Virus record (IMG/VR): IMGVR_UViG_3300016484_000310
Coordinates: 1-64,000 of that record
From: a virus
Direction: 5' to 3' (one strand)
Length of the DNA stretch: 64,000 nt
Of the stretch, positions 13,583 through 51,544 are shown in pieces; position 1 is the first letter of the stretch, and each line of letters begins with the position of its first letter. The notes below the pieces were generated by a model that did no database searches, had not been told where the DNA came from, and worked only from the letters and a program-made list of their open reading frames with translations. The translations under genes and the position numbers were made by a program.

Positions 13583-13833
13583 TGGGACAAATCTTTGCTG
13601 GAGGATTCATGGCCATTGGCCTTGTCCTTTTCGTCATCCTGATGGTCACTCTGGGAACCCTTTTCGGTGGGATCGCAGGATGGATTGTCGGTCTCTTCTT
13701 TACCGACACCATCATGGGCACCATGAACCGTTTCGGTGTTGACACCATGGGCATGACCATGTGGCAACTGGGTGCAACTCTAGGCTTTGTGGGTGGGTTC
13801 TTCAAATCCACCAAGGTGCAGAAAAATGGCTGA
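13582..13833 (+). CDS. small multi-pass membrane protein
   Basis: TAATG overlap. Two or three hydrophobic helices. Confidence 0.55.
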   Translation: MGQIFAGGFMAIGLVLFVILMVTLGTLFGGIAGWIVGLFFTDTIMGTMNRFGVDTMGMTMWQLGATLGFVGGFFKSTKVQKNG

Positions 13834-15193
13834 TCGTCGCAAACCCAAACTGCTGATTATCGGTCATGCTCGTCATGGCAAAGATACCTTTGCTGAGCTG
13901 CTCCGTGACAAACTGGGTCTGGCCTTTACCTCCTCCTCCCATTTCGTGGGGGAGGAGTGTATTTGGCCCATGTGGGGAAAAGAGCGGTATCCGACTTTCG
14001 AAGCCATGTTCGAAGATCGGGTGAACAACCGCAAACTGTGGGCTGATCTCATCTCTGCCTACAATACCCCTGACAAGACCAGAACTGCTCGAACCATGCT
14101 GGAACGTGGCTATGACATGTATGTCGGAATGCGTCGAATGGACGAATTCGTGGCATGTAATCACGCCAAGCTGTTCGACTATGTGATCTGGGTTGATGCT
14201 TCCAAGCGTCTTCCCCCTGAAGGTGCAGACTCCAATGAGATGGTCCCCAATCTGGCTCACCTCTTTGTATCCAACAACGGTTCTCTGGAGACTTTGAACG
14301 AATACGCTGATCTGCTTCAGAAAAAGCTTCACGAAGAGGGCTTTGATGTCGGAATGGATGGTCCGAAAACCCTCGAATGGACCGACATGCCTGAAGGAGC
14401 AGTTCGTGTTCTCGACCATGGTTTCTTTATTGTCCGTGAGGTCATGGGATCTGACAAAGCAATCGCTGACTCAGCCCGCATGAGCTATGGACGGGGAACC
14501 AAGAAGACCAACACTGATGAGGGTCTCATCAACTATCTGGTTCACAATCATCATACCTCTCCTCTGGAGATGGGTGAGATTCGTGTCCACATGAGGCTCC
14601 CCATCTTTGTCATGAGGCAACTCATCAGGCATCGAACAGCCAACGTGAACGAATACTCGGGTCGCTTTTCCGAGATGGTTCGTCTATTCTACATCCCTGA
14701 ATTTGAACACATTTGTCACCAAGACACTGTGAACAAGCAGGGATCGGCTGAACCTCTGGACAAGGAAACTGCTGCTGAAGTCCAGATGGAAATGCTTCGT
14801 ATCTCGAACGAAGCTTTCGACACCTATGAGAAACTTCTGGAGAAGAAGGTCTCTCGTGAAACTGCTCGGATGGTGCTTCCCCTGAACACCTATACCGAGT
14901 GTGTCTGGAAGATCGACATCAACAATCTGACCAAGCTCCTGAAGCTGCGTGACGACTCTCATGCTCAATATGAGATCAGGGTCTATGCAAAGCTTCTGGC
15001 CGAAGCTCTTCAGCATTTCTTCCCTGCTGTCTACTCGGCTTATGAGCGTGACAAAGGACGGGTGAGCCTGAATAAGGATCAGCTCCGTGCTTTGATGACT
15101 GGCCATCTGGTCAATCTGAGCAATTCCGAAGCCAAGGTTGTTCGTGACCTCTTGAACGAACACGATATTCCGGTATTTGAATCGGAAGAATGA
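13826..15193 (+). CDS. thyX: fusion: P-loop dNMP-kinase-like domain plus flavin-dependent thymidylate synthase ThyX
   Basis: N-terminal LLIIGHARHGKDTFAELL. From about 14399, the ThyX fold with the signature RHRTANVNEYSGRFS. Confidence 0.8.
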   Translation: MADRRKPKLLIIGHARHGKDTFAELLRDKLGLAFTSSSHFVGEECIWPMWGKERYPTFEAMFEDRVNNRKLWADLISAYNTPDKTRTARTMLERGYDMYVGMRRMDEFVACNHAKLFDYVIWVDASKRLPPEGADSNEMVPNLAHLFVSNNGSLETLNEYADLLQKKLHEEGFDVGMDGPKTLEWTDMPEGAVRVLDHGFFIVREVMGSDKAIADSARMSYGRGTKKTNTDEGLINYLVHNHHTSPLEMGEIRVHMRLPIFVMRQLIRHRTANVNEYSGRFSEMVRLFYIPEFEHICHQDTVNKQGSAEPLDKETAAEVQMEMLRISNEAFDTYEKLLEKKVSRETARMVLPLNTYTECVWKIDINNLTKLLKLRDDSHAQYEIRVYAKLLAEALQHFFPAVYSAYERDKGRVSLNKDQLRALMTGHLVNLSNSEAKVVRDLLNEHDIPVFESEE

Positions 15194-15268
15194 TTCGGTT
15201 GCCCTGACTGGGGGGTAAAACCCAGCGGTAAGTGGATAGAGCCGTCTTGCGCGAGACAATCATCCATC

Positions 15269-15315
15269 AGACGGAACCAGCATCTACCTCCTATGCTGGT
15301 TCCGTCTTCCATTTT
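15269..15315 (+). terminator. strong rho-independent terminator
   Basis: 15-bp stem AGACGGAACCAGCAT/ATGCTGGTTCCGTCT with a 9-nt loop, followed by TCCATTTT. Confidence 0.85.
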
Positions 15316-15362
15316 CCCAACTTCATGTTATAGCTCATCCAACTTCACTGGGAGTTAGCCAA

Positions 15363-15836
15363 ATGAGCACCAAAATGCCCAAGATTTCGGTAAAACGTGG
15401 AGACGATTTCCGTCTTGATATTACTGTGCAAGATCTGAATAGTGATGACTCACTTACAGCCAAAGCTAATTTGGAAGCTACTCGAACGACATACGATGCG
15501 GCTATAGCTGCAACTCCCCAAATTCCATCCAATATTGCTGCTGCTCAGAATGCACTGACAAATGCTCAAACAGCATACGATTTAGCCATCAAAGTGGACA
15601 TCTCTCTCTGGACAATTTCCTCCAGCCTTGCTTGGGCTGGAAAACTGATTTCAACCTTTGTCGTCACAAAAACTGACCCACGAAATGGAGTCTTCTCTGT
15701 TCGACTTCCAAGCACTGAAACAGCTCTTTGGAAACCTAGAGTCTATGAAGCAGACATCCAATTTGTCCGTCCAGAGGGGAGGATCTCATCTAAGACTTTC
15801 CAAATCTCTGTAGAAAGAGATGTGGCAAATGGCTGA
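15363..15836 (+). CDS. hypothetical protein, possibly fibre-associated
   Basis: SD GGGAG. AT-richer than the core genome. Lies directly upstream of and overlaps the collagen-like gene. The fibre association is inferred from context only. Confidence 0.5.
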
Positions 15837-16338
15837 GCAACTTGATCTCAATTTTTTACTTGGTCCCCAGTTTACGCTGCAAGTGATCAATAATTCTGGG
15901 ACTTTTGATGTAACATTAGAAGATACACCTGAAATCTCTATAGTTGAGAGCTCAGACAGAATATTTGAACTCTCAGTAGGAACTAGAACCTCCCTATATG
16001 AAGGTCCTGTAGGGCCTCAAGGGCCTCAAGGTGCTCCCGGACCTAAAGGGGACACTGGAAATACTGGTCCACAAGGAATTGCTGGACCTAAAGGTGATAC
16101 TGGGGAACAAGGCCCCCAAGGGATCCAAGGAAACACTGGTCCTGTTGGTCCACAAGGACCTAAAGGGGACACTGGAAATACTGGTCCACAAGGTCCACAG
16201 GGGAATATAGGCCCCCAAGGACCAACAGGACCACAAACAGTCTTTGTACAAATGACTCAACCCATAGCCTCTGGACCTTGGGTTTGGTGGCAAACTGATG
16301 TAAATGGGTCAATCATTGATTGCTGGGTTCAATCGTAA
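15829..16338 (+). CDS. collagen-like repeat protein (putative tail-fibre component)
   Basis: 26 uninterrupted G-X-Y triplets. Alternative start at 15820. Confidence 0.7.
16003..16236 (+). repeat. G-X-Y coding repeat containing a 38-nt perfect direct repeat
   Basis: GGACCTAAAGGGGACACTGGAAATACTGGTCCACAAGG occurs at 16039-16076 and again at 16156-16193 (117 nt, or 13 triplets, apart). Confidence 0.9.
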
Positions 16339-16349
16339 GGAGAACCACT

Positions 16350-17765
16350 ATGCCTTCACAACCCTTTGCTGGTCTTGGTCAGGAAGTCACTCTCGCTTCC
16401 ATCCTCACCCGTCTGCGTCAGACCAACCTGCCCCTCAGTGACGCCGAGGCTTTGGCGGTGCGCAACGTCCCGAAATTCCTCTGGGACTGTTCTTTTGCGA
16501 ACGTTATTGCGAACAACGTTGACGCCGCATACTTCAACCTAATCCAAACCGGCGCGGGCCAGACGGTGGCGCAGACCGGAGGCAATCTTGTCTTGACCAC
16601 CGGCGTCACCCCGAACAGCGAGACCGTCATCCGGTCCAAGCGCAGCTTCAATAGCGCGCTGACCTTTCGGCAGGTCACCACTCTGTCGCAGCGGATCGCC
16701 AACCAGAATTTTTTTGCTGAACTGGTCGATGTGATCGGCGATGGTCTGGCCTATAACATCATCTCTGCGACCACGGTCGATGTGACCAAACCCGCGCATG
16801 GATTTACGGCAGCAAACGCCGGTCAGCGCATGGATCTCTGCGCGATCACAGGTGCTGCGGGCGTCCCGGTGGAAGGCGTGATCGCGTCCATTCCCGACAC
16901 AAACACGATCCGGTTTACCGTCTCGGGGTGGCCCGCCACGGGCACCGGGACGCTCAGCCTCACGGGCTGGAACAAGGTCGAGGTCGTCTACAACGGCACG
17001 ACGGCGACAACCGTCGCCATCAACACGCGGCGGCGGGGCTGGCAAAACGCCTCCACCGCCGTGTCGATCAACTCCACGGGTGCGCCGCATCAAGCCATCG
17101 TCAATCTGGACAACGGCATGGTCTCCATCCTCGACAAGAGCATGTCGTATGGCGCCGGGATATCAGGACGCGGTTGGTGGGACGCAAATATCCCACCGCC
17201 GGAGACCCCGCTCTACATCCAGCTCCGCTCGAAAAATGGCCCCGTCGCGCCCGCCAGCACAACGACGTGGACCATCGGCATGGTGCGTGTCGAGGACTAC
17301 AACCCGGTTGAGGTGAACCTTGGCGGTGTGCGGCCGCATGCCGCCCCTCAGGCGCTCAATGTGACCATGGGTGTCTCTGGATCGCGCATCGGGTTCGTGG
17401 CCAAACACGCGATCCAATACAGCGATACGACCACAAACCTTGCGGCCAGCGCGACTTTCACGGGCACAAGCCGGGATTTGTCGTTCACCACCGCCGGGGC
17501 GGCTATTACTTCGACCAGCACTCACTTGGACGAGGTCCGCGTACTTGCTGAAACCGACGTGTCGGGCGGCACCCTCGCACTGGAGGTCAGCCTGGACGGC
17601 ACGAACTGGTCGCGCATTGCGGCGCAGGCTGTCGCGGCGGTGGCGGGCGGTGGCTATACCGCTGCGATCACCCACAAAATCGCGTGGCGCTATGCCCGCG
17701 TAATCTATGTCAACGGCGCGACCGCTACAGGGCGGCTGCGCATCGGCTCTCAACTGACATCTTAA
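16350..17765 (+). CDS. putative tail-fibre / receptor-binding protein, high-GC mosaic allele
   Basis: SD AAGGAGA before ATG 16350. 471 aa. From about 16400 the GC content is far above the rest of the window. The function is inferred from position after the collagen-like gene. Confidence 0.6.
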   Translation: MPSQPFAGLGQEVTLASILTRLRQTNLPLSDAEALAVRNVPKFLWDCSFANVIANNVDAAYFNLIQTGAGQTVAQTGGNLVLTTGVTPNSETVIRSKRSFNSALTFRQVTTLSQRIANQNFFAELVDVIGDGLAYNIISATTVDVTKPAHGFTAANAGQRMDLCAITGAAGVPVEGVIASIPDTNTIRFTVSGWPATGTGTLSLTGWNKVEVVYNGTTATTVAINTRRRGWQNASTAVSINSTGAPHQAIVNLDNGMVSILDKSMSYGAGISGRGWWDANIPPPETPLYIQLRSKNGPVAPASTTTWTIGMVRVEDYNPVEVNLGGVRPHAAPQALNVTMGVSGSRIGFVAKHAIQYSDTTTNLAASATFTGTSRDLSFTTAGAAITSTSTHLDEVRVLAETDVSGGTLALEVSLDGTNWSRIAAQAVAAVAGGGYTAAITHKIAWRYARVIYVNGATATGRLRIGSQLTS

Positions 17766-17960
17766 AGGGGGCGCAAAAATGCCTATCGACGAACGCTTTG
17801 CCTACATCACGACCGCGACCGGACAACGATACCAGGTGCTGCGGTACGAACCGGACCCCGAAACCGGCGACATGGTCGCGGTTGATTGGGACGAAGCCGC
17901 CACGGCAGAAGCCGCGGCGCGGGGCGAATGATGCACGCGTCAGCCTATGCCGATGAATTG
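16400..17960. other. high-GC foreign block (about 1.55 kb)
   Basis: Hand counts on 60-nt lines give 55-62% G+C inside (16501, 16861) against 35% at 15901. The boundaries are approximate. Confidence 0.7.
17779..17931 (+). CDS. small high-GC ORF (50 aa, below the ORF-track cutoff)
   Basis: SD AGGGGG, then ATG 17779. Hand translation MPIDERFAYITTATGQRYQVLRYEPDPETGDMVAVDWDEAATAEAAARGE. Confidence 0.45.
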   Translation: MPIDERFAYITTATGQRYQVLRYEPDPETGDMVAVDWDEAATAEAAARGE

Positions 17961-18188
17961 CGCGTCATTGCTGAAACAGACGTGACTGGAGAAACTCTTG
18001 CTATTGAGATCTCATTAGATGGGGTTAACTGATCCCGTATTGTAGCACAAGCTATCACTGCTGTGTCAGGAGAGGGACTCACTGCCTCAATTACACATAA
18101 AATCGTATGGTGTTATGCTCGTGTGATTTTTGTGAATGGGTCCACTGCAACAGGAAGATTACATATTGGATCTCAAATCATTGCCTGA
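17931..18188 (+). pseudogene. 3' remnant of the displaced native fibre allele
   Basis: 17952-18188 translates colinearly with the last 78 codons of 16350..17765 (17529-17765). 55 of 78 residues are identical by hand count. The GC is low. There is an in-frame TGA at 18030-18032 where the intact copy has TGG (Trp). Confidence 0.8.
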
Positions 18189-18396
18189 GTACTAATTACC
18201 AATTCTGCTTCTAAAACTTAGACTTTGATGAAGCTATCGAAAAAATCCTCGTCCTTGGACCTGCATCATCTGAAATGGTGGTGCAGGATGTGGAAGTCGC
18301 TGTCGTCTATATAACGCCTTCTACTGTCATCATTGTCCAAGACGCAATGTTGCTCCCATTCTCTCGATGGTTGTCTAAGACATCATTTCTGGATAG

Positions 18397-19569
18397 ATGG
18401 GCATAACTGCACCAAAGAAGGAACTCCGTGGAATGCCTATGACACCCAAACAGTCAGAGGCTCTACGCCTTTGGCGCAAGCACAAAGAGAACACCACGAA
18501 AACAGCAAAGGAAATGGGAATCGGTAGATCTACTCTTCAAGAGATACTCAAAAGAGCACTCAAATGGGAAGCTGCTGAAAACTCTCCCGGTCAAATCCAA
18601 GCACTTGAGACCACAGGTCTTGATGTTGGAGTTGCTCGTCATGGATGGAGAATCGTTGTCGATCCTGTGACTGGTTCCAGAGACTCAGTGTTCTGGGTCT
18701 CAGAGAATCCAGAGATCCCACCAGAAAGCTTTACTCACAGACTCAAAGAAGCTCTGAAAGACATCGACAAACTGAAGCCTATTCCCAAGCCTGTTCAGTG
18801 TGACGAAGAGCTGTGCAACTTCATTCCTCTGGCAGATCTTCATATCGGTGGTCAGTATGGGGATCCTGAGTATCTCAAAGAGATTGAGAGATGCACTTAC
18901 AAGCTGATGGGAAGCCTTCCCAAGGCCAAGAAAGCAGTCATCCTTGAACTAGGTGATCTACTTGATGCCAATGACCACAAGGGCCTTACACCAGCCTCCG
19001 GCAACAACTGTGACGTGATCAGAGAGAACGTCCTCAAGAACTCTCAGGATGCCATCCAGATCATGAGCAGGTTCATCGTGCTGGCTCTGAGAACCCATGA
19101 GGAAGTGGAAGTCCATCTCCTCCGTGGGAACCATGATGAGACAGCCTACATCGCTGTCATGCTCACTCTCCAAGCCTACTTCAAGGACAACAAGAGAGTG
19201 AAGATTACCATCACTGATGATGATTTCAGAGTGATCCCATGGGGACTCTGTGCTGTCTTTCCGAACCATGGAGACAAAGCCAAGTGGGAAGATCTCAAAG
19301 GAGTGTTTGCAGACCAGTTCCCAGATGCTTGGGCCAAGGCCAAGTATTGGAGGTTCATCTGGACTGCCCACTTCCACCATGATCGACAGAGAGACATCAT
19401 GGGAGTCTTCGCTGAACACTTCAGAACACTCTCTGCTCCCAACAAATGGGCCAAACAGAAAGCCCTCTTTGCCAGAGGAGGCATCCAAGCTGTGACCCTT
19501 CACAAGACTGACGGTGAAGTAAATCGCACCAAAGTCAATCTGAGGCCCTTGCTTTTGCAGGACACCTGA
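18397..19569 (+). CDS. HTH-domain protein fused to a calcineurin-like metallophosphoesterase
   Basis: N-terminal TKTAKEMGIGRSTLQEILKRA (HTH). Phosphoesterase motifs DLHIG, GDLLD, GNHD, NHGD and AHFHHD appear in the canonical order. The start could be 18433 or 18439. Confidence 0.65.
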   Translation: MGITAPKKELRGMPMTPKQSEALRLWRKHKENTTKTAKEMGIGRSTLQEILKRALKWEAAENSPGQIQALETTGLDVGVARHGWRIVVDPVTGSRDSVFWVSENPEIPPESFTHRLKEALKDIDKLKPIPKPVQCDEELCNFIPLADLHIGGQYGDPEYLKEIERCTYKLMGSLPKAKKAVILELGDLLDANDHKGLTPASGNNCDVIRENVLKNSQDAIQIMSRFIVLALRTHEEVEVHLLRGNHDETAYIAVMLTLQAYFKDNKRVKITITDDDFRVIPWGLCAVFPNHGDKAKWEDLKGVFADQFPDAWAKAKYWRFIWTAHFHHDRQRDIMGVFAEHFRTLSAPNKWAKQKALFARGGIQAVTLHKTDGEVNRTKVNLRPLLLQDT

Positions 19570-19625
19570 TCTATCTTTGTCTCACAGGGATCGTGGAGAG
19601 ATTCACCAAAGATCTGTTGGTGTAT

Positions 19626-19659
19626 GAAGCCGGGGAGAAATCCTCGGCTTCTTCTTTTT
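19626..19659 (+). terminator. rho-independent terminator
   Basis: GAAGCCG (19626-19632) pairs with CGGCTTC (19645-19651), followed by TTCTTTTT. Confidence 0.75.
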
Positions 19660-40720: not shown

Positions 40721-40752
40721 GGGAGTGGGGAAACCCACTCCCTTTCCTTTTT
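40721..40752. terminator. hairpin terminator at the convergence point of the + and - modules
   Basis: GGGAGTGGG-GAAA-CCCACTCCC followed by TTTCCTTTTT on the + strand. It lies just downstream of the - strand vRNAP stop as well. Confidence 0.8.
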
Positions 40753-43700
40753 ACAAGCCTGTCACTGTGACCCATGGGTTCATACCGGGAGCATCCCACA
40801 ACATATCCCATCCCAGTGAGTAAGGCAGAGTGCCTTCCACAGCCTTAGTAGCGAGGTTGTCAGTTACTGGACCTGAATCCAGTCCCAATACACCAATCCC
40901 CACCATAGACCGCACAGGATTCTCTCTGACCGTCTGGAGAGCAACCTTCATAGATCTGATCTTGAAGGTCAGGAACCAAGTGGCACCCATCGACTCCAGA
41001 TAGGTTCTGGTCCGACCCGGCAGCAGAGAGAAGTTCACGAATTCTTCATTCACTCTCGCCATTGCCTGATCAGGCTTCATGCCAGTCTCAATCAGATGAT
41101 CGTAGTAGATCGACTTGGCAATGAAGTCCCCATACTGAACAGCTTTGTTGGCACCACGATAGATTGCTGTGTCTTTGCTCAGCAACCCATACTTGGCCAC
41201 AGTCTGCACACCAGCAGGCAGTTTGTTGAGTTGGTTCTCAAACCAATCTCCAAACTTCCCATCAGTGATCGACACATCCAGATCAGTCATGCCTTCAGAG
41301 ATCGTCTTGTAGGCACCAGCCTCGACAAGAGGAGCCACTGAGAAACGCTTGTTTTCATCTTCAAGAACTTGGATTTCCTGTCTCAGGATAGCGACCTTGT
41401 TCTTGTCTGTGGCTTTCAGTCTGATCCGAGCCTGAAGACCCATGATCTTCTTCAGGTTCTCATTCAGTTTGTCGATCTCAGCAAACTTGTCTCTGTATCC
41501 TTTCATGATTGCCTTGGTTCCAACACCACGGTTCACAAGCTGGAACACGTTGGACTGAGTGTTCATGTAAGGCACCACCAGAGATCTGACCACGATCAGA
41601 TCCTTGGCAGAAGAGATTGTGTTCATTGTCACAGTCTCTGTGTTTGCCAGCCATTTGAAGGCTTTGTCTCCCATGGTCATTTTTCCAACTGCTTTCACAG
41701 CCAGAACCACAGGCTCAGGCAGACGATGGTTTCCAGTGAACACGTCAACGATAGATGGATCTCTGTAACCCAGAGCCAAGTTGATCATGCCCTTACGAAC
41801 CATGAACCCAGTCTCTTCACCAAACTCAGCCATGATATATTCCTTGAGCTGAGGAGGAATGACCTTCCAGCTCTCGGCATAGATCTTGTCTTTTGCTGTA
41901 TCCATTCTGGTGAACAGACCATCTGTGTTTGGTTCTCTGTTGTCCCAGATCTTCTTCAGCTCCTTGACCAGAGTAAGGTTGTATTCGTGGGAGAATTTCT
42001 CTTCCACCTGACGACCAGCCCAAGCACCAACCATCATTGCCATATTAGACTCTGGCTGAAGATACTTCTGTGCCAAGTCAGGATTGATCGCTCTCTCATA
42101 GAAGAGCACTCCACCATCCTGATCCATGACAGGAATGAGCACATGCTTGTTGTCGTTCACTGTGAGCACGTTGTTCAGTGCATCAGTGATCGAGATCACA
42201 GCAACCCCAGAGATCACTCCAGAGACCGTCCCATTGACTGTCAGGCCCGTCGTAGCGTTCACACCACGATAGGTATCCTGCACCTGCTGGAGAACGCCCT
42301 GAGAGTAGTTCCCACCTTGTTTCACTGTAGTCATGTAGTAACCCCGTGAAACCAGTGAGCCGCTGTCTGTGGTGTCGTCTGCAACACGCACATACCCACG
42401 TCTCTCAAGGTCTTCTCTTTCGCTGTCTCTGGCGATGATGAGGCTTGTTTCACCCTTGCTGTGGTCAGGAATGTAACCTTTGTAGCCATTCATCCGAGCA
42501 GCCTCAGAGATGGTCTTCGAGTCTTCTTCCTTGTTCAGAGCCTGAACGTAGACCAGCAGGTTGTGAACCCCATCAGGATCACTTGCCTGCATACGAGCCA
42601 CAGACTCTCTCTGAGTCTTGTCTGTCCCATTCAGGGCATACAGGCTGATCAGACGATCCAGCTCTTTGACCATGAAAGGCTTCTTGCCTCCTGCCAATTT
42701 GTGAATGGCATAGGCATTCTTCCAGAGCTGGAACCCAGCTCCTTTCCCATTCATGAAGTCAGCCAGTTGCTGACCTTTCAGAAGCATGTTGTTCCCAACT
42801 TCTCCGGGAAACTCTTTGCGGATCTTCTTCTCTGCATCCTTGATACGCTGATCCAGAAGAGACTGGTCACTCAACATGTCAAAGGCATCATCGGGGTTTC
42901 CGATGTCAAACAGAGCAGCGAAATCAGCCTTACCCAGAACATGATGGAGATCTCTCCACTGTTCAGCAGTCGGGTGAGTCTTGAATTCGTTCTGGAAGAT
43001 CACCGGAAGTTCTTCCCGGTAAGCCTGACGAGAGGACTGGACCACATAGTTCACCTTGTCCAGCATCTGAATGACGTTGGTGTTGATCGCATCACCACCC
43101 ACGATTTCAGAAACCAGTTCACGAATGAACACCAGACCATCCAGCATTCCACCCATATGGGTAGCAGTCTTTGCTGCCTTGGCAGATTGCTTAGACAGGT
43201 TTGGGTCAAGATAGTTTGTGGCCAGAGTCACAGCACCAGAAACAGTCTTGAGCAGACCATTCTTGGTTGAGGCTTGAACCTCTCTGTTCATGGCATTGGT
43301 TCTCTGAGCCAGTTGAGACAAAGCACCACCCACAAAGGTATCAGCCTTTGTGAACGTCTTCATAAGCCCTTGCAGAGCCTTGAATTCATTAGCGTTGTCT
43401 TGTCTCAGAATCTGATCGCTGAGAGTGTCCATGATCTCTTTGACAGACTTTCCTTCAAGATCTGTCGAAGCCACAACCTTCTGCATCAGATACCCAGTAG
43501 AAGTCGTCAGCAGATCATTCAAAGACTTGATCTTCTGACCTCTTTGGGAAGCAGGCTGGGGCAGTTGCTCCATGGCTTTTCTGAAGCCTGTGGATGTCTG
43601 AGACAGAGCCAGAAGAACAGCAATAGAGTCCGAGATGCCTTCATCATTCTTGGTGGCTCCCATCAGTTCCATGACCGTAGAGTAACGATCCTGAGCAGCC

Positions 43701-46700
43701 TGACCAGTTCCAAACATGGCAGGAGTCAGGTTGTTCACCACATGCTCATAGGTCTTGCCAAGAGCAATGAGAGCCTTGCTGTCCAGTCTCAATTCCGCTG
43801 CAATGACTGTATGGATCGCAGTGAAGGTCTTCTTCTGGTATTCGCTCATAGCGAAACCACCAAAATCCAACTTCACCAGAGCATCATCAGCAGTCTTGAT
43901 GTATCTCAGCAGACGCTCTTGAGCATTGTTCCCAGTAGCAGTCTTTGACTGTTCCAGACGTTCTCTCAAACGGTCGATCCAGAAGTTGGTGAAAGTGTTC
44001 GCTGTAGGCGTCACTTCTTCACCTTGGTTTTCATCCAGATCAAACCCACCGGGGAATTCTTCATTACGGATCATCTCCGTGTTGAAGAGGATCTGGCTAT
44101 ACATGTCTACAGGAACCACCCCAAGGATCTTCTGGATCCAAGCCTTGGCAGCCTTTGTCAGACGAGCAACCAGAGATGTAGGAGTCTGTTTCAGCTCCCG
44201 CATCAGGTGATCGTTTGCAAGAGTCCAAGCCATGAACTCATTCAGAGCAATGGCATCACCCATAGCAGTGGCTTCAGCCTTGGCTTGGACAATGGCTGTC
44301 TTGGCGTTCAGGTAAACATCCAGAGCCTCTTGGCTCATGGAAGCAGTATCCATCGAAAGGAACTCTTCCATCAGAACCTCAAGGTTCTTCACAGCCGTAG
44401 ATTTCTGAACCCCTTGATAGTGGTTCAGCACAGCATTGAAGGTAGCCATGTGAATCAGCTCATGAGTGATCGTCTCATGGTTGTCACTCATGATGAAGAT
44501 CGTATTGCTATCCACGTCGTAGAACCCTTTGGTTCTTTGTTCGAGAGTTCTCGATGAAGGCTGGCTGTTCTCAGCTCTCCACTTCGCAATCTCTTCCTGA
44601 GTCCCCATGACGATACGAGCATCATCAGGGAGCATCCCTCTGATGGCACGGATGACATCACGAAGATAAGGCTTGGCCTCTCTCATGAGAGCATCAGTCA
44701 CAGTGGCCACATCAGTGACAACGATGGGGTCTTCTGCAACCTCTTGAGATTGTTCAGAAGTTTCTTCAGTGGGCTGAGTTACAGCCACTTTGCCATCCAT
44801 TTGATCTTGGATCATCTGGTTGATCTGTTCATAGGTCAGCTCTTCTCCGTTTTCGTTACGGACAAAAGCTTTCCCTGAACCACCCATGTGATCCACGGAC
44901 AGAGTGATCTGTTTGAACACAGTCTTTCTGGCTTGGTTCAATCTGTGGACTTCTTCCAGTTTGGTCTTCAGGTCATTGACAGTGAATGCCACAACCGAAG
45001 ACTTCTCTTCAGAAGACTTCTTCACAGTTGCAAAGGCTTGTTCCAGTTTTCCTTCAAGCCCTTGGCTCTTCACGAGATCCAAGAACTGAGTGAAGTTGCC
45101 CACAACCGGACCCAGAACATCCTGATCCCAGTTTGCCAGAACTGCTTCGTTGATCTGGTTGCTCAGATCACCAAAGTCAGAAATCGCCATGTCGATACCG
45201 TCAAAGATGGGAATCGCTCTCTCAGGAGCGTTATCAGCCCCAAAGATCCGGTTCATCATCATGGCATCGCCTCTGCCTTGAATGATGTAAGGAATGACCT
45301 TCACACCAAGGTTGTCAGGCTTCTGCATTGTGGATTTGGTCCGAATGTTCCCACTCAGGTTCGAACTCATCTCAGTCTTGTCTTGTTGACCAGTGAAGTC
45401 ACCAATCCGAAGAGCCTGAAGCCCGTCATTGTAGAACGGTGCAAAGGCCAGAGTTTCCTTGACCACTGCGTCATAGGCAGCCTGAGTCAGTTTTCTCAGA
45501 GCGAAATCGCTGGTGTTCCCAGCAGCCTTCCATTCTTTCTCAGCTTCACTCACAGCTTCAGCAAGACGCTGTTCAAAGAACAGCTTCATGAATTCGCCTT
45601 GCACACCTGTGGTGTAAACCAGAAGGTCATTCACACCTGTGGTCTTCTCGCTCATCACTTCGCTGATTGAGCTGCTCAGAACCACCCCAATGGTCTCTTT
45701 CACGAATTCCGAGAAAGGCACCATCTTGGCAGCAGGCAGAACAAACGAGTTCACATCCAGCTTGTCAGGGAGTCTCACCCCAAACAGCAGGTCCAGATCT
45801 TCGTTGATCTCTGCGTAGTTCAGATGTTCTTCGACTGACACACCATCAGGCAACTCAATCAGTTGGCTGTAGAAACCAACCAGCATGTCCTGAGTGATAC
45901 CTTCAGCAATGCCTTTTTCACCAGACCCGTAGACCTTCTTGGTCATCGGGTTCTTCGAAGTGGCACGGCTCATCACAATCGAACCGTCAGGCTTGATCTC
46001 GAAGTCACCGAAGTGAGCAGCAAATCGTTGCAGAGCGATCAGACGCTTTTTGTCCAATCCTTTGGCTGCATTGATCATGTTGAACATTCTCTTGGTCGAG
46101 AAAGCTGAGTTCACCTCATAGAGGTCAACCTCTCCACCAGAGAACAGAGTGTTCAGGGTCTCAGTCTTTGAACCAAGGAACAGACCGATACGCTTGAAGT
46201 TTTCATACTCCATGCGAGTCATCAGACCTTGTCCCAGAGCCACCATCATGTTGGCCGGACCATCGGTCTTACCATCCAGTTCAAAGCTCAGGGTAGTCTC
46301 AAAGTTTTGTGCAGTCCCTGCCTTCAGGGCTTGCTGGAGACGAGCCACAGCCAGCACAGCATTCACCTGTGCCACTTCCACATTCTCGCCCTTGTTGGCC
46401 TTCAGCATCGCTTCTGCAAAGGCTTGTTGGTCGAGAGTTCCATTCTCCAGATAAGCAGAGACAATCGCAGTGGCTTCACCAAAGCGAGTTTGGAAATCTT
46501 GCTGCACAGTCGTCAGGATCTTGGAGTGGAGTTTCTTCTCCACCTTCGCAATCCCTGAAGCCTGAGCCACAGTCAGCCAGAAGGCATTTTTGTGGTTCTG
46601 GTTTCCGACCATATCCAGTTTGGAGTGGGTAGGAGTGATCATCGCTCTCAGAAGCTTGTTGTTCTGAGGGTTGAGTCCTTTCATCTGGTGACGACCCACA

Positions 46701-49700
46701 TTGGTCACACCAACAGGGAAGAACACAGGACGACCTTGAGCAGCACTCACCATTTGGAATGCAGTCAGGTAGTCACGTTCGATAGATGTGTTCTTGCCTT
46801 CGATTGAGAGTCTCAGAGGATGACGAGCTGAGAGCTGAGAAGAATCCTTCTTCCCTGCCATCATCGACCAAGTGTCCAGACCCAGTGCTTGGAACAGACC
46901 AACCACAGGAGCAGCCTCAAGGTATGCAGTATCCTGCATCTTCTTGATGGCCTTACGTTCCAGCACAGACAGTTTTACGTCAGGCTTGTTCGATTGAGTG
47001 CTGTCCACATGAGTCAGCTTTTCACCGAAAGAAGCCATTATGGAATCTTCCGGGAAAAGAACCTTGTCCAGAGAACCAGCAGCCTCAAGACCAATGGCTT
47101 CCTGTTCACCCTGAAGGTTCGAGATCTCAAAGGTAGTGGCTTTGCCTTTGCCCACCTTGATGTCAATCACACGAACCAGAGGATCTTCCATCTGGCTCAG
47201 CACAGTGAAGATCTCTTTGACCAGACCTTCAGTAGTCCCTCTGATGTCAACCATCTGAGAGGCTCTGTCAGCCTGAACGTTCCAGAGTTTCATGACCTTC
47301 TTGGCCAGAGACTCTGACACACTCCGAGGAGGAACGCTGTTCAGCAGATCCTTTACGTCGTCTTGAGTCAGGTCATCAGCCTTGAGTTCCAGCTCTTCCA
47401 GCAGATCATCAAGACGATCAGCACCATAGGCTCTGGCAGTAGTCATCCAGTCGATCACAGCCATTGAAGCCAGATCGAGAAGACGTTGATCATACTTCCC
47501 AGTCTGAGGATCGACGATCATCAGAGGCTTGAAATCTCGAATTTCAAGCACTGAGGCTTGATCATCTTTGAGACCTTGAGCAAGTGTCTTGGTCTTTTGC
47601 TCCAGACGCTTGAGAGTAGCCACACGGTCATTCATGCCGTCACGGATACGACCCAAAAGGATCTGAGCAAATTCCTGATAGGTCTCAGTTCCCGGCTGAG
47701 CCGAGATGAGTTTCAGGATCTGATCAACGTTTTCAGCCTTGGCAGGAGTCTTCTTCTGACGGAACACACTGACAAAGCGATCACTGATCTGAGCCTCAGT
47801 TTGTGGACCAGTTTCAAAACCGATCTGCTTGAATCCAGCAGCATTGGCTTCACGCTCAAGAGCGATGTTTTCAGGATCCATCAGATCCTTGGCATAGGTC
47901 TTTCCTTGGCTCAGTTGCTCAATGTGAGCAAGTCCATGAGCCATGATGAAACCCACATAGGTGTTCACACCCTTGTCCAAAACAAAGGTTCTGAAGGCTT
48001 CTTTGTCGATGTCCTTGAAGACCTCTGCCTTCTGAGCAGATGTCTGGCCTTCGAGACCATCAATGTATTTCAGACCATTCTTGAAGTCTGAAAGGATCTT
48101 CTCAACGTTCAGACGAATGGTCTTCTTTGAAGGACTGGTTCCAGCCAAAGAAGAGTTCTCATCATTGGAGAAAACCAGTGACCATCCTTCAGGCAGTTTG
48201 CCTTCATATCTTTTGGTGATCTTGTCTTGCAGCTTTTCAGCCTCAGTCTTCTCTTGAGGCTGAAGAACAGAAACCTGATCAGACTTAGTGCTGATGACAA
48301 GGATGTCTCCAGCATCATTGGTGATCACCACACCATCAGCCCCATTTTCCAGAAGCTTCTCAATCGCACGCTTCCGCTGCATCGAGTAAACATCCACATC
48401 ATTCTCTGATGCCTCCAAGTATTCTGGAGACTTGAGAGTGATGTCAGCAGTGATAACCCGAGCACCTTGCAGCTCATTACGAGCAGCGTGCATTGTGGCC
48501 AGTCCCGGTCTGTTGGTCCAGAAAGTCTCACCTTCCTTGAACCGATCAAACTTCTGGTTGGTTCCATGGTAAACCCGATAGGTGATCGACCCATCAGCAT
48601 TCACTCTATTTCCAAAGCCATCATCGGTCTCGGATGCGGGGACCGCATCCTCGACAGCCGTTGTCGGAGGTGTTTGTTCCTGAGTTTGTTCCTGTGTGTT
48701 TTGGCCGTTCTCGTCGGTCCCTCCTGACGGAGGAACCTCCTCGACCGCCGTTGTGTTTTGGTTGCTCACTTGAGCAACTTCAGACTCGACGGTCTTGATC
48801 GAAGGCATGGTCATAGGACCATTCGGGAAGCTCTCAGGATACTGAGCTGCCAGAGTGTTATACAGCTCACCAATCAAAGCTGCATCAGCACCCACAGTCT
48901 TGGCAAAGGTCACTGAGTTCACTGACCGCTTATTGTAGTTCACAGCAGCAGAGCCAGCCATACCAGCCTTGATGAAGTCTTTGCCCCGAACCAGAGTGTC
49001 ATGGAACACTCTAGGACCGACACCAGAAGCATCGTTCTTGTCGAATGACTCATTCAGGGCATTGACCTTGTTGGCCATATGCTGAGCCAGTTTGCCAAAG
49101 TTCTCAGCAACTGTCTTCACAGGCACACGAACACCGTCGATCTCTACTGACTTGTCAGCAGACCGTGAACCAAGGATGATCCGGTTGGCAAAATCGTTCA
49201 GAGAAGGGACTTTGTTTTCCCCACTCAGATTTCCAACGATCAGATTCCGAGAGACTTTTTCCACATTGGTCTCAGGCTTCTCTGGGTTCTGACCAGTAGC
49301 CTTGAGAGCCTGATATTTGTCTTCAGAGATCTTGACGATGTTCTCTTTGTAGGTGTTGAAAAGACGAGCCACTTTGGCGTCATTTTCCAAGTTCTGAACA
49401 TCTTGAGGACTCATGTCCCCACGATCTTCCTGTTTCAGAATCTTGTCTGCCACATCAGGGTTGATGTTGGTCGGATTGATCTTGCTCATGGCAAGAGTCA
49501 TCGACTTAAGAACAGGACTGACCTTCTCAATCGTAGAGCTGACAGCAGTGTTCAGATCCAGACGAGCTGCACGCTTGCGGATACGTTCCAAATCAGGGGA
49601 AGCCAGAACCTTCTTCACCTTGTCCTGAATTTCAGGAGCCAAAGATGAAGCAGCATTCTGCATCTCGTTGTATTTCTGACTCACAAAAAGAATGGCATCA

Positions 49701-51544
49701 TCTGCCATGTCCGAGATCGGAGTCTTCTTTTCAGCCAGAGTTTTCACGATGTTTGTCATCGTGTCAGCAATGGTAGATCCCGGAGCCACAGAGTCCTTAA
49801 AGGCTTCAGGAACAGTTTCATTGGTATCCGTCACAGATCCCAATGAACCAGTATCCACAGCAGGATCCTGCACAGCCTTGTTGACTTCTTCAGCAGCAGC
49901 AACTGTCTCGCTCTGGATCACAGGGTTCGGTCTTTCGACGTAATCCTGAGCTGTCTTGATGGCTTGGCTCACCAGAGGCTCAGCAGCAGCTCTCACAGCC
50001 TGCACAGCAGTCTTGGCAGTACCCACTGCCCCAGACAGCACATCGCTCTCAGCAAGGCTCTGAGCGGCTTCCTTGGCTCTGTTTACAGCCTCAGCCCCTC
50101 TGCTCATAACAGAGTTGAAAAGATCCTCAGCAGGAGATGTCTGAGTCATCATAGAACGAAGTTCAGCATCACGCTCTTCAGGAGTCATTCTGGCTCTGGC
50201 ATCAGCACGACGTTGAGCAGCAATCTGCTCTCCCATGCTTTGAACAAAGCGTTCATTCGCCACTTGCTCTTTGATCCGGTCAAACTGTTCTTGCAGACCA
50301 TTGGCAATCCCTGAAGGAGCACCAATGATACCAGCAGTTCCAAAGCCACCGATGATCCCACTGACCGCTTGATCAGCAACACCTTCCATCAGAGGCTGGG
50401 AAGGATCCACGATATTCTGAATAGCGATGTTCTGGTTCAGTTGACCAGAACCACCTTGAGCACCTTCTTCCAGTGCTTCTTTCCCTGCGGTGATGAACAC
50501 ACCCAGAGGGTTTTCACCTCTCATCACTGAAAGAGGATTGGCGTTGAATTTGGCACTCAGCAGACCAGCAGCCATTGCAGACGGAAGCTGTCTGACAAAG
50601 GCATCCAGACCAGCCTCATCAGCAACTGCCATGAGTGCTCTCTCATGAGTGTATCCCTGACCAATCAGGTCTTGATACATCTGAGAGCCTGCCATCTCTT
50701 CAGGAGTCCGACCCATCACCTCATTCACAGTAGAGGTGTAGGTAGAAGCGGCTTCTGTGATACCCATACCCACAGATGAACCAGCAGTCTCAAGGGCCAG
50801 TCTCTTGACCCCCTCAATACCATACCGTTCAGCCAGACCAATAGCCAGACGTTCACCAGCCTTGGCGAAGATTGAACCAGTGGCAAGAGAGCCAGCAGCA
50901 TTCGCCAGAAGATCTCCAGTAGCCACTGGGTCACTCAGAATGCGATCACCTGCATTCAGAGCATCACGCCCAAACTTGGTCAGGCTGGCAATGAATTCAC
51001 TGTCTCCAGCAGCGATGTCTTGTTCATACTGATCTTGGCTCATCTGATCGTCGATGGCACTGATCTGACCCTGAATACGAGCACTCTCTTGTGCTGTATC
51101 CGTGCGGTATGACTGGATGTTTTGAACAGTCTCATCTGTGGCTCCAGAAAGAACCACAGCGTAGCCTTTCATCAGACTACCAATATCGTCAGCAGTGGTT
51201 CCATCCTCAGCGAAATACTGAGTAGCAGTTCCCAGCCCAGTCATGGCCAGAGAACCAATGGAACCTGCAAAAGCAGGGATCGTCGAACCAGCAGTCAGAA
51301 GAGTATCCCCAATGATCTCTCCAGCAGTGCGATCACGCAGACGAGCAGCTTCTTGCTCCAGTCTACGCTTCTCTTCAGCCAGAGTGCGTTCTTGAGGAGT
51401 GGGTTCAGTTGCAGCAACTTCAGCCAAAAACTGAGGATTCGTCAGAATCGAGTTCTGATACTTCGGAGCCTCAGTTGTTGGAGTAGGATTCAGGAAGTTG
51501 GGATTGGCCAGAGGAGAGTTGGCGTAGTTGGGTGTGTCAACCAT
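40751..51544 (-). CDS. N4 gp50-like virion-encapsidated RNA polymerase (vRNAP), 3597 aa
   Basis: Giant ORF with SD GAGGAA. T7-like motifs: T/DxxGR as TNVGRHQ (46691-46705); motif A ELDGKTDGPANMM (about 46250-46282); motif B KNPMTKKVYGSG (about 45920-45955); motif C PIFDGIDMA (about 45188-45211). The motif spacing is similar to what I recall for N4 mini-vRNAP. Confidence 0.9.
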   Translation of the reverse strand: MVDTPNYANSPLANPNFLNPTPTTEAPKYQNSILTNPQFLAEVAATEPTPQERTLAEEKRRLEQEAARLRDRTAGEIIGDTLLTAGSTIPAFAGSIGSLAMTGLGTATQYFAEDGTTADDIGSLMKGYAVVLSGATDETVQNIQSYRTDTAQESARIQGQISAIDDQMSQDQYEQDIAAGDSEFIASLTKFGRDALNAGDRILSDPVATGDLLANAAGSLATGSIFAKAGERLAIGLAERYGIEGVKRLALETAGSSVGMGITEAASTYTSTVNEVMGRTPEEMAGSQMYQDLIGQGYTHERALMAVADEAGLDAFVRQLPSAMAAGLLSAKFNANPLSVMRGENPLGVFITAGKEALEEGAQGGSGQLNQNIAIQNIVDPSQPLMEGVADQAVSGIIGGFGTAGIIGAPSGIANGLQEQFDRIKEQVANERFVQSMGEQIAAQRRADARARMTPEERDAELRSMMTQTSPAEDLFNSVMSRGAEAVNRAKEAAQSLAESDVLSGAVGTAKTAVQAVRAAAEPLVSQAIKTAQDYVERPNPVIQSETVAAAEEVNKAVQDPAVDTGSLGSVTDTNETVPEAFKDSVAPGSTIADTMTNIVKTLAEKKTPISDMADDAILFVSQKYNEMQNAASSLAPEIQDKVKKVLASPDLERIRKRAARLDLNTAVSSTIEKVSPVLKSMTLAMSKINPTNINPDVADKILKQEDRGDMSPQDVQNLENDAKVARLFNTYKENIVKISEDKYQALKATGQNPEKPETNVEKVSRNLIVGNLSGENKVPSLNDFANRIILGSRSADKSVEIDGVRVPVKTVAENFGKLAQHMANKVNALNESFDKNDASGVGPRVFHDTLVRGKDFIKAGMAGSAAVNYNKRSVNSVTFAKTVGADAALIGELYNTLAAQYPESFPNGPMTMPSIKTVESEVAQVSNQNTTAVEEVPPSGGTDENGQNTQEQTQEQTPPTTAVEDAVPASETDDGFGNRVNADGSITYRVYHGTNQKFDRFKEGETFWTNRPGLATMHAARNELQGARVITADITLKSPEYLEASENDVDVYSMQRKRAIEKLLENGADGVVITNDAGDILVISTKSDQVSVLQPQEKTEAEKLQDKITKRYEGKLPEGWSLVFSNDENSSLAGTSPSKKTIRLNVEKILSDFKNGLKYIDGLEGQTSAQKAEVFKDIDKEAFRTFVLDKGVNTYVGFIMAHGLAHIEQLSQGKTYAKDLMDPENIALEREANAAGFKQIGFETGPQTEAQISDRFVSVFRQKKTPAKAENVDQILKLISAQPGTETYQEFAQILLGRIRDGMNDRVATLKRLEQKTKTLAQGLKDDQASVLEIRDFKPLMIVDPQTGKYDQRLLDLASMAVIDWMTTARAYGADRLDDLLEELELKADDLTQDDVKDLLNSVPPRSVSESLAKKVMKLWNVQADRASQMVDIRGTTEGLVKEIFTVLSQMEDPLVRVIDIKVGKGKATTFEISNLQGEQEAIGLEAAGSLDKVLFPEDSIMASFGEKLTHVDSTQSNKPDVKLSVLERKAIKKMQDTAYLEAAPVVGLFQALGLDTWSMMAGKKDSSQLSARHPLRLSIEGKNTSIERDYLTAFQMVSAAQGRPVFFPVGVTNVGRHQMKGLNPQNNKLLRAMITPTHSKLDMVGNQNHKNAFWLTVAQASGIAKVEKKLHSKILTTVQQDFQTRFGEATAIVSAYLENGTLDQQAFAEAMLKANKGENVEVAQVNAVLAVARLQQALKAGTAQNFETTLSFELDGKTDGPANMMVALGQGLMTRMEYENFKRIGLFLGSKTETLNTLFSGGEVDLYEVNSAFSTKRMFNMINAAKGLDKKRLIALQRFAAHFGDFEIKPDGSIVMSRATSKNPMTKKVYGSGEKGIAEGITQDMLVGFYSQLIELPDGVSVEEHLNYAEINEDLDLLFGVRLPDKLDVNSFVLPAAKMVPFSEFVKETIGVVLSSSISEVMSEKTTGVNDLLVYTTGVQGEFMKLFFEQRLAEAVSEAEKEWKAAGNTSDFALRKLTQAAYDAVVKETLAFAPFYNDGLQALRIGDFTGQQDKTEMSSNLSGNIRTKSTMQKPDNLGVKVIPYIIQGRGDAMMMNRIFGADNAPERAIPIFDGIDMAISDFGDLSNQINEAVLANWDQDVLGPVVGNFTQFLDLVKSQGLEGKLEQAFATVKKSSEEKSSVVAFTVNDLKTKLEEVHRLNQARKTVFKQITLSVDHMGGSGKAFVRNENGEELTYEQINQMIQDQMDGKVAVTQPTEETSEQSQEVAEDPIVVTDVATVTDALMREAKPYLRDVIRAIRGMLPDDARIVMGTQEEIAKWRAENSQPSSRTLEQRTKGFYDVDSNTIFIMSDNHETITHELIHMATFNAVLNHYQGVQKSTAVKNLEVLMEEFLSMDTASMSQEALDVYLNAKTAIVQAKAEATAMGDAIALNEFMAWTLANDHLMRELKQTPTSLVARLTKAAKAWIQKILGVVPVDMYSQILFNTEMIRNEEFPGGFDLDENQGEEVTPTANTFTNFWIDRLRERLEQSKTATGNNAQERLLRYIKTADDALVKLDFGGFAMSEYQKKTFTAIHTVIAAELRLDSKALIALGKTYEHVVNNLTPAMFGTGQAAQDRYSTVMELMGATKNDEGISDSIAVLLALSQTSTGFRKAMEQLPQPASQRGQKIKSLNDLLTTSTGYLMQKVVASTDLEGKSVKEIMDTLSDQILRQDNANEFKALQGLMKTFTKADTFVGGALSQLAQRTNAMNREVQASTKNGLLKTVSGAVTLATNYLDPNLSKQSAKAAKTATHMGGMLDGLVFIRELVSEIVGGDAINTNVIQMLDKVNYVVQSSRQAYREELPVIFQNEFKTHPTAEQWRDLHHVLGKADFAALFDIGNPDDAFDMLSDQSLLDQRIKDAEKKIRKEFPGEVGNNMLLKGQQLADFMNGKGAGFQLWKNAYAIHKLAGGKKPFMVKELDRLISLYALNGTDKTQRESVARMQASDPDGVHNLLVYVQALNKEEDSKTISEAARMNGYKGYIPDHSKGETSLIIARDSEREDLERRGYVRVADDTTDSGSLVSRGYYMTTVKQGGNYSQGVLQQVQDTYRGVNATTGLTVNGTVSGVISGVAVISITDALNNVLTVNDNKHVLIPVMDQDGGVLFYERAINPDLAQKYLQPESNMAMMVGAWAGRQVEEKFSHEYNLTLVKELKKIWDNREPNTDGLFTRMDTAKDKIYAESWKVIPPQLKEYIMAEFGEETGFMVRKGMINLALGYRDPSIVDVFTGNHRLPEPVVLAVKAVGKMTMGDKAFKWLANTETVTMNTISSAKDLIVVRSLVVPYMNTQSNVFQLVNRGVGTKAIMKGYRDKFAEIDKLNENLKKIMGLQARIRLKATDKNKVAILRQEIQVLEDENKRFSVAPLVEAGAYKTISEGMTDLDVSITDGKFGDWFENQLNKLPAGVQTVAKYGLLSKDTAIYRGANKAVQYGDFIAKSIYYDHLIETGMKPDQAMARVNEEFVNFSLLPGRTRTYLESMGATWFLTFKIRSMKVALQTVRENPVRSMVGIGVLGLDSGPVTDNLATKAVEGTLPYSLGWDMLWDAPGMNPWVTVTGL

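Follow-up and report, generated by a model that had tools for sequence, protein, structure and literature searches.

An N4-like phage fibre locus in which a high-GC tip gene has probably replaced a low-GC allele, leaving its decaying 3′ end behind

Introduction

The receptor-binding parts of phages are frequently mosaic. Examples are the tail fibres of P2, Mu, P1 and lambda, gp37/38 of the T-even phages, and the tailspikes or depolymerases that have been swapped among Klebsiella and Salmonella phages. The mosaics of the P2/Mu/P1/lambda tail fibres were reportedly described by Haggard-Ljungquist et al. in 1992 and by Sandmeier in 1994. Here we describe a locus in a 64,000-nucleotide (nt) stretch of viral DNA (positions 1 to 64,000 of IMG/VR record IMGVR_UViG_3300016484_000310, hereafter “the window”), in which a high-GC gene for a putative fibre tip and a small companion gene are followed by a low-GC sequence, “the stump”, that resembles the 3′ end of the tip gene. 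As in the tail-fibre mosaics, a distal host-recognition gene appears to have been replaced while the proximal anchor was kept, with junctions inside a gene and a composition that departs from the backbone. In contrast to the mosaics, the displaced 3′ end survives here, and among known sequences it appears to be the one most closely related to the incoming allele. Moreover, the difference in GC content is unusually clear, and the locus lies outside the late structural block.

The closest described locus is found in N4-like roseophages. The proteins gp31 and gp32 of phage RPP1 were detected in virions by mass spectrometry, and the respective region among the middle genes was named the “second structural module” (Chan et al. 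2014, PMC4193335). The same paper describes neither turnover of the locus nor compositional islands. The sequence identifies the window as an N4-like phage, as an initial annotation of this DNA had proposed: an open reading frame (ORF) of 3597 amino acids (aa) at 40751..51544 (minus strand) has the size of a virion RNA polymerase (vRNAP), and the best matches of the late proteins are from N4-like roseophages, with identities of 37-50%. The region under study is flanked by thyX and a Metallophos exonuclease-like gene, and rIIA- and rIIB-like genes follow downstream.

We assign the locus to the second structural module. As in RPP1 and RLP1 (gp25, gp28, gp31 and gp32), it is situated just after thyX among the “middle” genes. 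Downstream of thyX in this early/middle region, a gp31 homologue (~50% identical over the C-terminal half) is followed, as in the module, by a collagen-repeat protein, in the position of gp32, a virion protein that has collagen repeats, too. Unlike in the window, where the exonuclease-like gene follows the fibre cassette, the Metallophos-like orf28 precedes gp31 in RPP1, and RPP1 has no homologue of the 471-aa tip protein. The RPP1 gene (3224-4384 in L094) is a distant counterpart of the exonuclease-like gene of the window (22% identity, E = 2e-15), and its product has been reported as a virion “structural protein”. The different positions of the two counterparts show that the gene order around the module is rearranged.

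Gp53 of the N4-like Pseudomonas phage DEV and fibre I of podophage GP4 are long tail fibres (PMC11445570). The module of the window can be compared with such accessory trimeric fibres, which recognise surface polysaccharide and are anchored to the tail by a small adaptor or collar at the N-terminus, and relatives of the window phage carry the GP4 Gp80 domain at the locus. The proteins of the window, in contrast, have no sequence similarity to those of DEV and GP4; adaptor, tip and the collagen-like shaft are polypeptides of their own.

Results

A compositional island covers most of the tip gene

In 200-nt windows, the G+C content is 0.39-0.55 upstream, 0.58-0.67 at positions ~16400-18000, and 0.41-0.48 beyond them. 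The interval 16400-17950 has 62.3% G+C, whereas all other 1550-nt windows have a mean of 49.7% (standard deviation 1.8, maximum 54.6), which corresponds to z = 7.1. A two-boundary likelihood fit placed the left edge at 16394 (2-log-unit support ~16340-16430) and the right edge at 17954 (support ~17920-18000), and the latter coincides with the first codon of the stump. Hence, the composition jump at ~16400-17960 that had been seen in the initial annotation was confirmed, and the GC profile is not flat. The value of 35% just upstream, which had been used as the contrast, turned out to be a local trough. The backbone has a GC content of about 50%, and only the adjacent fibre genes and the spacer behind the stump are low, with 38-47% in 200-nt windows.

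The compositional contrast is carried by synonymous sites. The GC contents of the first, second and third codon positions (GC1/GC2/GC3) are 0.57/0.53/0.75 for the tip gene and 0.52/0.48/0.29 for the stump, i.e. the sharp-edged island is an island at synonymous sites, with a GC3 of 0.75 compared to 0.29 for the homologous codons. For comparison, GC3 over 60 ORFs of the window is 0.547 ± 0.10, while the tip gene has a value of 0.747. The two genes upstream of the tip gene have values of 0.348 (adaptor-like gene) and 0.277 (collagen-like gene), so that the stump groups compositionally with its upstream neighbours and not with the gene that it resembles. Three GC3 classes are thus found side by side, the cassette with ~0.3, the backbone with 0.55, and the presumed import with 0.75. 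In the family of tip-gene homologues, the GC content of the gene mostly tracks that of its flanks across a range of 29-70%; three loci differ by 8-9 points, and the excess in the window is 11.5 points.

Only 2 of the first 10 codons of the tip gene end in G or C, compared to 7-9 of 10 in the next blocks, and no other 10-codon window of the gene is so low. Because this is the only low-GC3 stretch, the left junction is probably situated inside the gene. The native start region would then have been kept, and the tip gene is probably chimeric, with native codons 1 to ~10 and an imported remainder.

The high-GC block extends beyond the tip gene and includes the companion ORF, which has no Pfam or PHROG match. 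Counterparts with identities of 56-59% over 41 aa start right after the homologous gene in two further loci (L035 and L040). This recurrence indicates that the block is a two-gene unit, comprised of the lectin-like gene and its companion. Scans for promoters and terminators, Rfam and a repeat search around the junctions yielded nothing above chance, and there is no microhomology of more than 12 nt.

A homologous low-GC stump adjoins the island

The stump aligns without gaps to residues 394-471 of the tip protein, with 55 of 78 identical residues (56 of 79 including the shared stop position; BLASTP E = 3e-32). Apart from its own gene, the stump (tblastn E = 2e-29) is the sole significant match of the tip protein in the whole window. 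The colinearity with the last 78 codons, the number of identities, and the TGA in place of a TGG, which had all been stated initially, are therefore correct. The nucleotide identity to the tip gene is 63%, or 76%, 86% and 28% for codon positions 1, 2 and 3, and the stump has a GC content of 43%. The TGG codon encodes a Trp residue in the tip gene and in all relatives. The stump is thus a truncated, colinear and inactivated copy that adjoins the intact gene, and it does not have a start codon of its own for the domain. Gene callers predicted only an ORF of 34 codons in the stump (17928..18032), which overlaps the stop of the companion ORF. No suppressor tRNA able to read the TGA was found; the only tRNA genes of the window are those for tRNA-Asn and tRNA-Arg. 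They are located at its left end (63-241) and have the anticodons GTT and TCT. In the structural model, the stump spans six strands of the C-terminal beta-sandwich. At 77 other loci with a homologue, no remnant of the respective gene was found nearby.

Codon by codon, the stump and the tip gene differ only synonymously in 39 cases and non-synonymously in 23, and the proportions of synonymous and non-synonymous differences are pS = 0.90 and pN = 0.17. In 62 of the 87 mismatches, an A or T in the stump is opposite a G or C in the gene. Both the pS and pN values and the A/T-G/C bias argue for two functional alleles that were separated for a long time in different GC backgrounds under purifying selection, and against a local duplication.

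The C-termini of the stump and the new allele are 72-74% identical to each other, while the closest of the remaining family members reach 53% when compared with the stump and 60% when compared with the new allele. Relative to a consensus of 33 other sequences of the family, the stump has deviating residues at 24 conserved columns. Judged by eye, ~13 of these residues are also present in the new allele, which deviates from the consensus at ~5 more of the columns, too. In addition, a one-residue insertion is common to both. These sequence comparisons indicate that the stump and the new allele are sister alleles, i.e. each other's closest known relatives.

Decay of the stump is visible as the change of Trp to a stop codon, of Arg to Cys in the otherwise invariant motif WRYARV, and of Gly to Glu in GGG, but there is no indel. 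The combination of three radical changes at conserved positions and the lack of indels suggests an event that is young relative to the streamlining of phage genomes, but not brand new. The event had initially been called recent. This agrees with the unameliorated block and the stump without indels, while the three radical changes do not fit a very recent date. A horizontal swap that left a pseudogene of the old allele, as had been proposed, is supported also by the codon composition of the stump, which matches the two upstream cassette genes. The spacer between the stump and the exonuclease-like gene did not yield a terminator, promoter or Rfam match.

The locus differs in every relative fetched

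Every relative that was fetched carries a different set of fibre genes between thyX and the exonuclease-like gene. Six of them (L002, L108, L109, L111, L115 and L116) differ from the window between the adaptor gene and the exonuclease-like gene. The flanks are conserved. L002 has aa identities of 97% for ThyX and of 93% for the exonuclease-like protein, and the respective values for L108, L109 and L111 are 67-72% and 67-76%. Nucleotide homology to L002 extends from 13877 to 15852, is then lost, and resumes only at 18405. The interval of L002 is filled by 6 kb of other fibre genes, i.e. collagen-like genes, the Gp80 domain of the GP4 fibre, and a Laminin_G_3 lectin. Further, more distantly related members of the clade were retrieved with the adaptor protein; L109, L111/L112, L115 and L116 each have yet another gene set between the adaptor gene and the exonuclease-like gene. 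The cassette genes of L002, L109, L111, L115 and L116 have GC3 values of 0.23-0.45, compared to 0.44-0.60 for the flanking thyX and exonuclease-like genes. It seems that the whole module turns over from AT-richer sources, or that it has a different codon bias.

L108 (Logan SRR25230051_19495) has the gene order thyX, adaptor gene, a collagen-like gene for 194 aa, a gene for a 620-aa lectin homologue, and the exonuclease-like gene. This order matches that of the window, showing that the lectin family belongs at the locus. The lectin gene of L108 has a GC content of 61.8% and a GC3 of 0.79, compared to 0.35-0.60 for its neighbours. The L108 allele is only 60% identical to the allele of the window in the conserved core. 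In contrast, its identities to a gene of L117 are 81% at the aa level (core) and 77% at the nucleotide level over 968 nt. L117 is a contig with 65% GC that contains tail genes and a collagen-like gene directly before the lectin gene, adjoining a phage integrase gene, and it looks like a temperate phage. Because the L108 allele is independent of that of the window, these sequences suggest that high-GC tips were captured at least twice in the clade.

The tip gene of L108 (3445-5307) is itself mosaic. The first ~50 codons have a GC3 of ~0.5, which increases to ~0.8-0.9 from 3595-3601 onwards, and the 77% nucleotide identity to the L117 gene sets in at this position, too. The coincidence of the two places a crossover where the conserved core begins.

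A collagen-like gene directly followed by a lectin homologue is found in L117 and also in L031, a contig with 34% GC. Only this collagen-plus-lectin pair is common to the window, L031 and L117, and a collagen-like gene is present upstream at only 5 of 74 homologue loci. A conserved three-gene cassette had been considered as well, but was dropped, since the small first genes of L031 and L117 have no BLASTP similarity to the adaptor of the window.

The tip protein has a predicted lectin-like fold

The tip protein has more than 842 homologues, almost all of them unnamed metagenomic proteins and none of them named by function. No match to Pfam (E <= 0.01) or PHROG was obtained. Residues 1-330 are conserved across the family and the last ~140 are variable; accordingly, many matches cover only 66-72% of the query. 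An AlphaFold2 (AF2) model with a mean predicted local distance difference test (pLDDT) score of 83.7 consists of two beta-sandwich domains, a concanavalin-A-like domain at about residues 40-320 and a small C-terminal domain at 354-471. The pLDDT is above 90 across most of the first domain, for which Foldseek retrieved GH16 glucanases and legume lectins (1gbg, 1u0a, 3o5s) with E-values down to 3e-7 and template modelling (TM) scores, normalised to the target, of 0.6-0.7. By its model, the first domain thus belongs to the jelly-roll beta-sandwiches. The sequence identity to the concanavalin-A-like superfamily is only 9-14%, so that the domain is predicted to be a relative in fold only. Membership in a lectin or glucanase family was not detected at the sequence level: there is no Pfam match, the GH16 motif ExDxxE is absent, and a PDB profile search was empty. 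Taken together, the predicted domain is more likely a carbohydrate-binding module than an enzyme.

The homologues adjoin large virion-type genes on phage-like contigs of 25-45 kb (a gene for an 807-aa protein with a lysozyme domain; a faint SU10_adaptor match), and one is found in Microcystis phage Mae-JY24. Their N-termini vary and have repeats of the type “GAATETTL..NTKLP”, as would be expected for the modular anchoring of fibre proteins. The lectin-like fold, the correspondence to the module with virion proteins in RPP1, and the preceding adaptor-like and collagen-like genes make it plausible that the tip gene encodes a receptor-binding part. The view of the locus as a fibre or host-range module thus holds as far as a putative receptor-binding part is concerned. 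A large change of the host range is not implied, because the two alleles share the same type of C-terminal domain, with an identity of 72%.

Searches for the donor and for the displaced allele

Among 5.8 billion proteins, the best relative of the tip protein has an identity of 55-57%. A set of 185,579 species genomes contained only 11 loci, all in metagenome-assembled genomes (MAGs), with a highest identity of 50%, and no Rhodobacterales donor was among them; the three Rhodobacteraceae MAG loci (two from Rhodobacter, one from Cypionkella) have an identity of 40%. A megablast search of 14500-20300 against 50,697 phage records did not yield any match. The tblastn search with the stump against phages gave only a match at chance level (E = 0.2), and its search against IMG/VR gave nothing. 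It also retrieved nothing from the index of 5.8 billion proteins, a weak null result, as the high-GC protein of the window was not returned either. In metagenomes of the Joint Genome Institute (JGI), the stump had one weak and uninformative match of 30 aa (L107), in a scan that did not return the contig of the window itself. A search of IMG/VR for the adaptor protein by peptide patterns gave no hits.

Neither a donor lineage nor an intact version of the displaced low-GC allele was thus found in any collection searched. Host, prophage or gene transfer agent (GTA)-like DNA of an alphaproteobacterium had been suggested as the donor. Nothing points to a GTA or a host chromosome, and an origin from either is not supported. 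By analogy with the pair of L108 and L117, the most plausible donor would be another phage of high GC, possibly a temperate one.

Proposed replacement and alternative explanations

We propose, with a probability of roughly 0.78, that most of the fibre-tip gene was replaced horizontally and that the 3′ end of the old allele was left as a pseudogene. The ancestor would have carried a low-GC tip allele in a resident collagen-plus-lectin pair, in a fibre cassette made up of the adaptor-like gene, the gene for the collagen-like shaft, and the gene for the lectin-like tip. A block of ~1.56 kb from a source genome with ~62-65% G+C, which held the sister allele and the 50-codon companion gene, would have recombined into the tip gene. 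The left crossover would have occurred within the first ~10-15 codons, at the conserved 5′ end, so that the native ribosome-binding site and the N-terminus were kept. The right crossover would have been illegitimate, after the companion gene and at codon ~393 of the old allele. In this way, the resident tip gene would have lost codons ~11-393 to the incoming segment, and its last 78 codons, untranslatable as a unit, would now be decaying. The donor may have been a phage with the same collagen-plus-lectin pair, e.g. a temperate phage of host-like GC.

Several points weigh against this reconstruction. The assignment of the left junction is based on only ~10 codons, and placing the boundary immediately upstream of the start codon costs only ~1.6 log-likelihood units. 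The fibre-cassette genes of the clade generally are below the backbone in GC3, so that “native” means typical of the cassette and not typical of the phage. As long as neither a donor nor an intact low-GC allele is at hand, the direction and the recency of the event are read from composition and parsimony alone. The window stems from the assembly of a metagenome, and the same reads may underlie both of the identical assemblies. Finally, we infer the virion location of the 471-aa protein and also its sugar binding, the latter for a protein with neither a Pfam match nor the GH16 catalytic motif.

The stump could also have been generated without any replacement, if two tip genes had been arranged in tandem, the high-GC gene with its companion and then a low-GC gene, and if the first ~393 codons of the second gene had been deleted later. 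Arrays of several fibre genes are indeed present at the locus in relatives, and the likelihood profile allows a left boundary just upstream of the ATG. However, no other part of the gene has a GC3 as low as that of its first 10 codons, which suggests that a native 5′ end was fused to an imported body. Furthermore, no second copy or fragment is present at any of the 77 homologue loci, the collagen-like gene and the exonuclease-like gene of L108 enclose just one tip gene, and the import of high-GC DNA would be needed anyway. We therefore regard a tandem origin as improbable, albeit worth considering. It is very unlikely that no transfer took place at all, i.e. that the high GC content results from the amino acid composition or from gene-specific codon selection and that the stump is a diverged local duplicate. 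The high-GC lectin gene of L108 at the same locus could hint at a gene-specific bias, but the L108 allele is far closer to a gene in a contig with 65% GC (81% aa identity) than to the allele of the window (60%). In addition, the third codon positions carry the shift (0.75 versus 0.29 for homologous codons) and the first and second positions do not, the GC content of family members in other phages varies with that of their surroundings from 29% to 70%, and the stump proves that a low-GC version existed here.

An artificial fusion of two related phages during metagenome assembly has to be considered for a metagenomic contig, especially as the protein is present on only two contigs. However, the Logan assembly of SRR6423791 does not differ from the JGI-derived window at any of 11,602 positions. 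Neither junction contains a repeat of more than 12 nt, and no k-mer longer than 10 nt is common to the 3′ end of the gene and the stump, so that no k-mer path for a false join is available. A chimera would also not produce an internal island of 1.56 kb with both flanks from one backbone, and we consider this explanation extremely unlikely. A second copy of the 3′ end just downstream of a receptor-binding gene is the layout of the variable and template repeats (VR/TR) of diversity-generating retroelements (DGRs) and of invertible fibre segments. The stump could accordingly be a DGR template repeat or a switching C-terminal cassette, as with Gin of Mu or Cin of P1. This possibility is practically negligible, since the two copies are only 63% identical and the 87 mismatches involve all four bases (in the stump T 37, A 32, G 9 and C 9) and not only adenines, as required for a VR/TR pair. 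The copies are direct and not inverted repeats, flanking inverted repeats were not found, and the stump contains radical substitutions as well as a stop codon. The neighbouring genes scanned (13787-20298) do not encode a reverse-transcriptase or invertase domain.

Features of the locus and neighbouring genes

The features of the locus are compiled in Table 1.

Table 1. Positions of genes and sequence features between thyX and the exonuclease-like gene, in window coordinates
Feature	Coordinates	Strand	Remarks
thyX (Thy1)	13787..15193	+	Pfam Thy1 E = 1e-47; conserved left flank of the variable fibre locus
Adaptor-like protein, 157 aa, RPP1 gp31 homologue	15363..15836	+	First gene of the fibre cassette; GC3 0.35
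Collagen-like (Gly-X-Y) protein, 172 aa, presumed fibre shaft	15820..16338	+	Pfam Collagen E = 3e-14; PHROG tail-fibre families; GC3 0.28
Fibre-tip gene (putative), 471 aa	16350..17765	+	Lectin-like fold (model); GC3 0.75
High-GC block, probably imported	16394..17954	.	62.3% GC; edges are maximum-likelihood estimates
Companion ORF, 50 codons	17779..17931	+	Within the high-GC block; GC3 0.71
Stump, probable last 78 codons and stop of the displaced low-GC allele, pseudogene	17952..18188	+	In-frame TGA at 18030-18032
Low-GC spacer (42%)	18189..18396	.	Unique to this phage; presumed 3′ flank of the old cassette
Metallophos exonuclease-like gene	18397..19569	+	PHROG 704 E = 6e-60; conserved right flank

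A tblastn search with the adaptor-like protein retrieved 31 records, all of them from phages of Rhodobacterales hosts (N4-like roseophages and four records of Rhodobacter capsulatus phages). The annotated homologues include gp31 of RPP1 (“structural, host-like protein”) and gp27 of DS-1410Ws-06 (“virion protein”). The score against Pfam BppU_N (PF10651) is 19.8 bits, below the gathering cut-off of 23.1, so that membership in this family is not supported. The AF2 model has a pLDDT of 92.5. Its best Foldseek matches are chains of 139-140 aa of the T5 tail tip (7qg9_J/L, E = 1e-6) and the DT57C baseplate, and a weaker match is the N-terminal domain of TP901-1 ORF48 (3uh8, E = 8e-3). Chains of this length in T5 probably correspond to p132, the collar protein to which the side fibres are attached. 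Based on the model, we describe the protein as adaptor-like and not as a demonstrated member of BppU_N.

The last ~35 residues of the collagen-like protein (16231-16335) form a motif that recurs directly before lectin-like homologues. It was also found by tblastn in L031, L021, L025 and L102, and was read in L031; by eye, the collagen-like protein of L108 ends in the same motif. The shared C-terminal motif is a candidate docking site.

The other strong low-GC outliers of the window, at 9261-9791 and 3566-4078 (GC 35% and 43%; GC3 0.25 and 0.36), are HNH_3 homing-endonuclease genes, and the second one has an AP2 domain in addition. Two further HNH genes are located downstream of rIIB (L001 9026-9541 and 10738-11217, about 25189-27380 in the window). 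The highest GC3 of the window (0.80; 59% GC) belongs to a 138-aa ORF at 2738-3154 without a Pfam match, which may be a second small imported gene. Another protein of 138 aa, encoded at 19882-20298, matches Pfam Phage_VG64 (E = 2e-49) and PHROG 478, a recombination directionality factor. This label is odd for a virulent N4-like phage; the GC3 of the gene is rather high (0.69), and there is no tblastn match in L002.

Discussion

The event described here is an example of a known process, the mosaic exchange of receptor-binding modules of phages. It is clean but ordinary, and does not involve a new mechanism. What makes it valuable is the unusually legible record of a swap, in which the new allele and its companion gene are found at one site together with a scar of the old allele that can be dated.

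A further-reaching reading, which we put forward only tentatively and regard as less probable than not, is that the collagen-like shaft and the lectin-like tip form a portable “plug-in” pair. The interval between thyX and the exonuclease-like gene would be a docking locus, headed by the gp31-like adaptor, which repeatedly captures tips of host-like GC. Such a pair would range from virulent N4-like podophages (~50% GC) and small low-GC phages (L031) to high-GC temperate phages (L117). If this were true, the host range would be determined by the module and not by the canonical late tail genes, and compositional scars could be used to reconstruct the exchange partners of receptor-binding parts.

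For the engineering of fibre tips, natural junction points are available within the first ~10 codons of the tip gene and at the conserved end of the collagen-like protein. The results are also useful for the prediction of host ranges from metagenomic N4-like genomes. The locus is an under-described hot spot of N4-like phages and contains a protein family without annotation. The second structural module of N4-like marine phages, which has been little studied, thus emerges as a fibre locus with a fast turnover that draws on phages of widely differing base composition.

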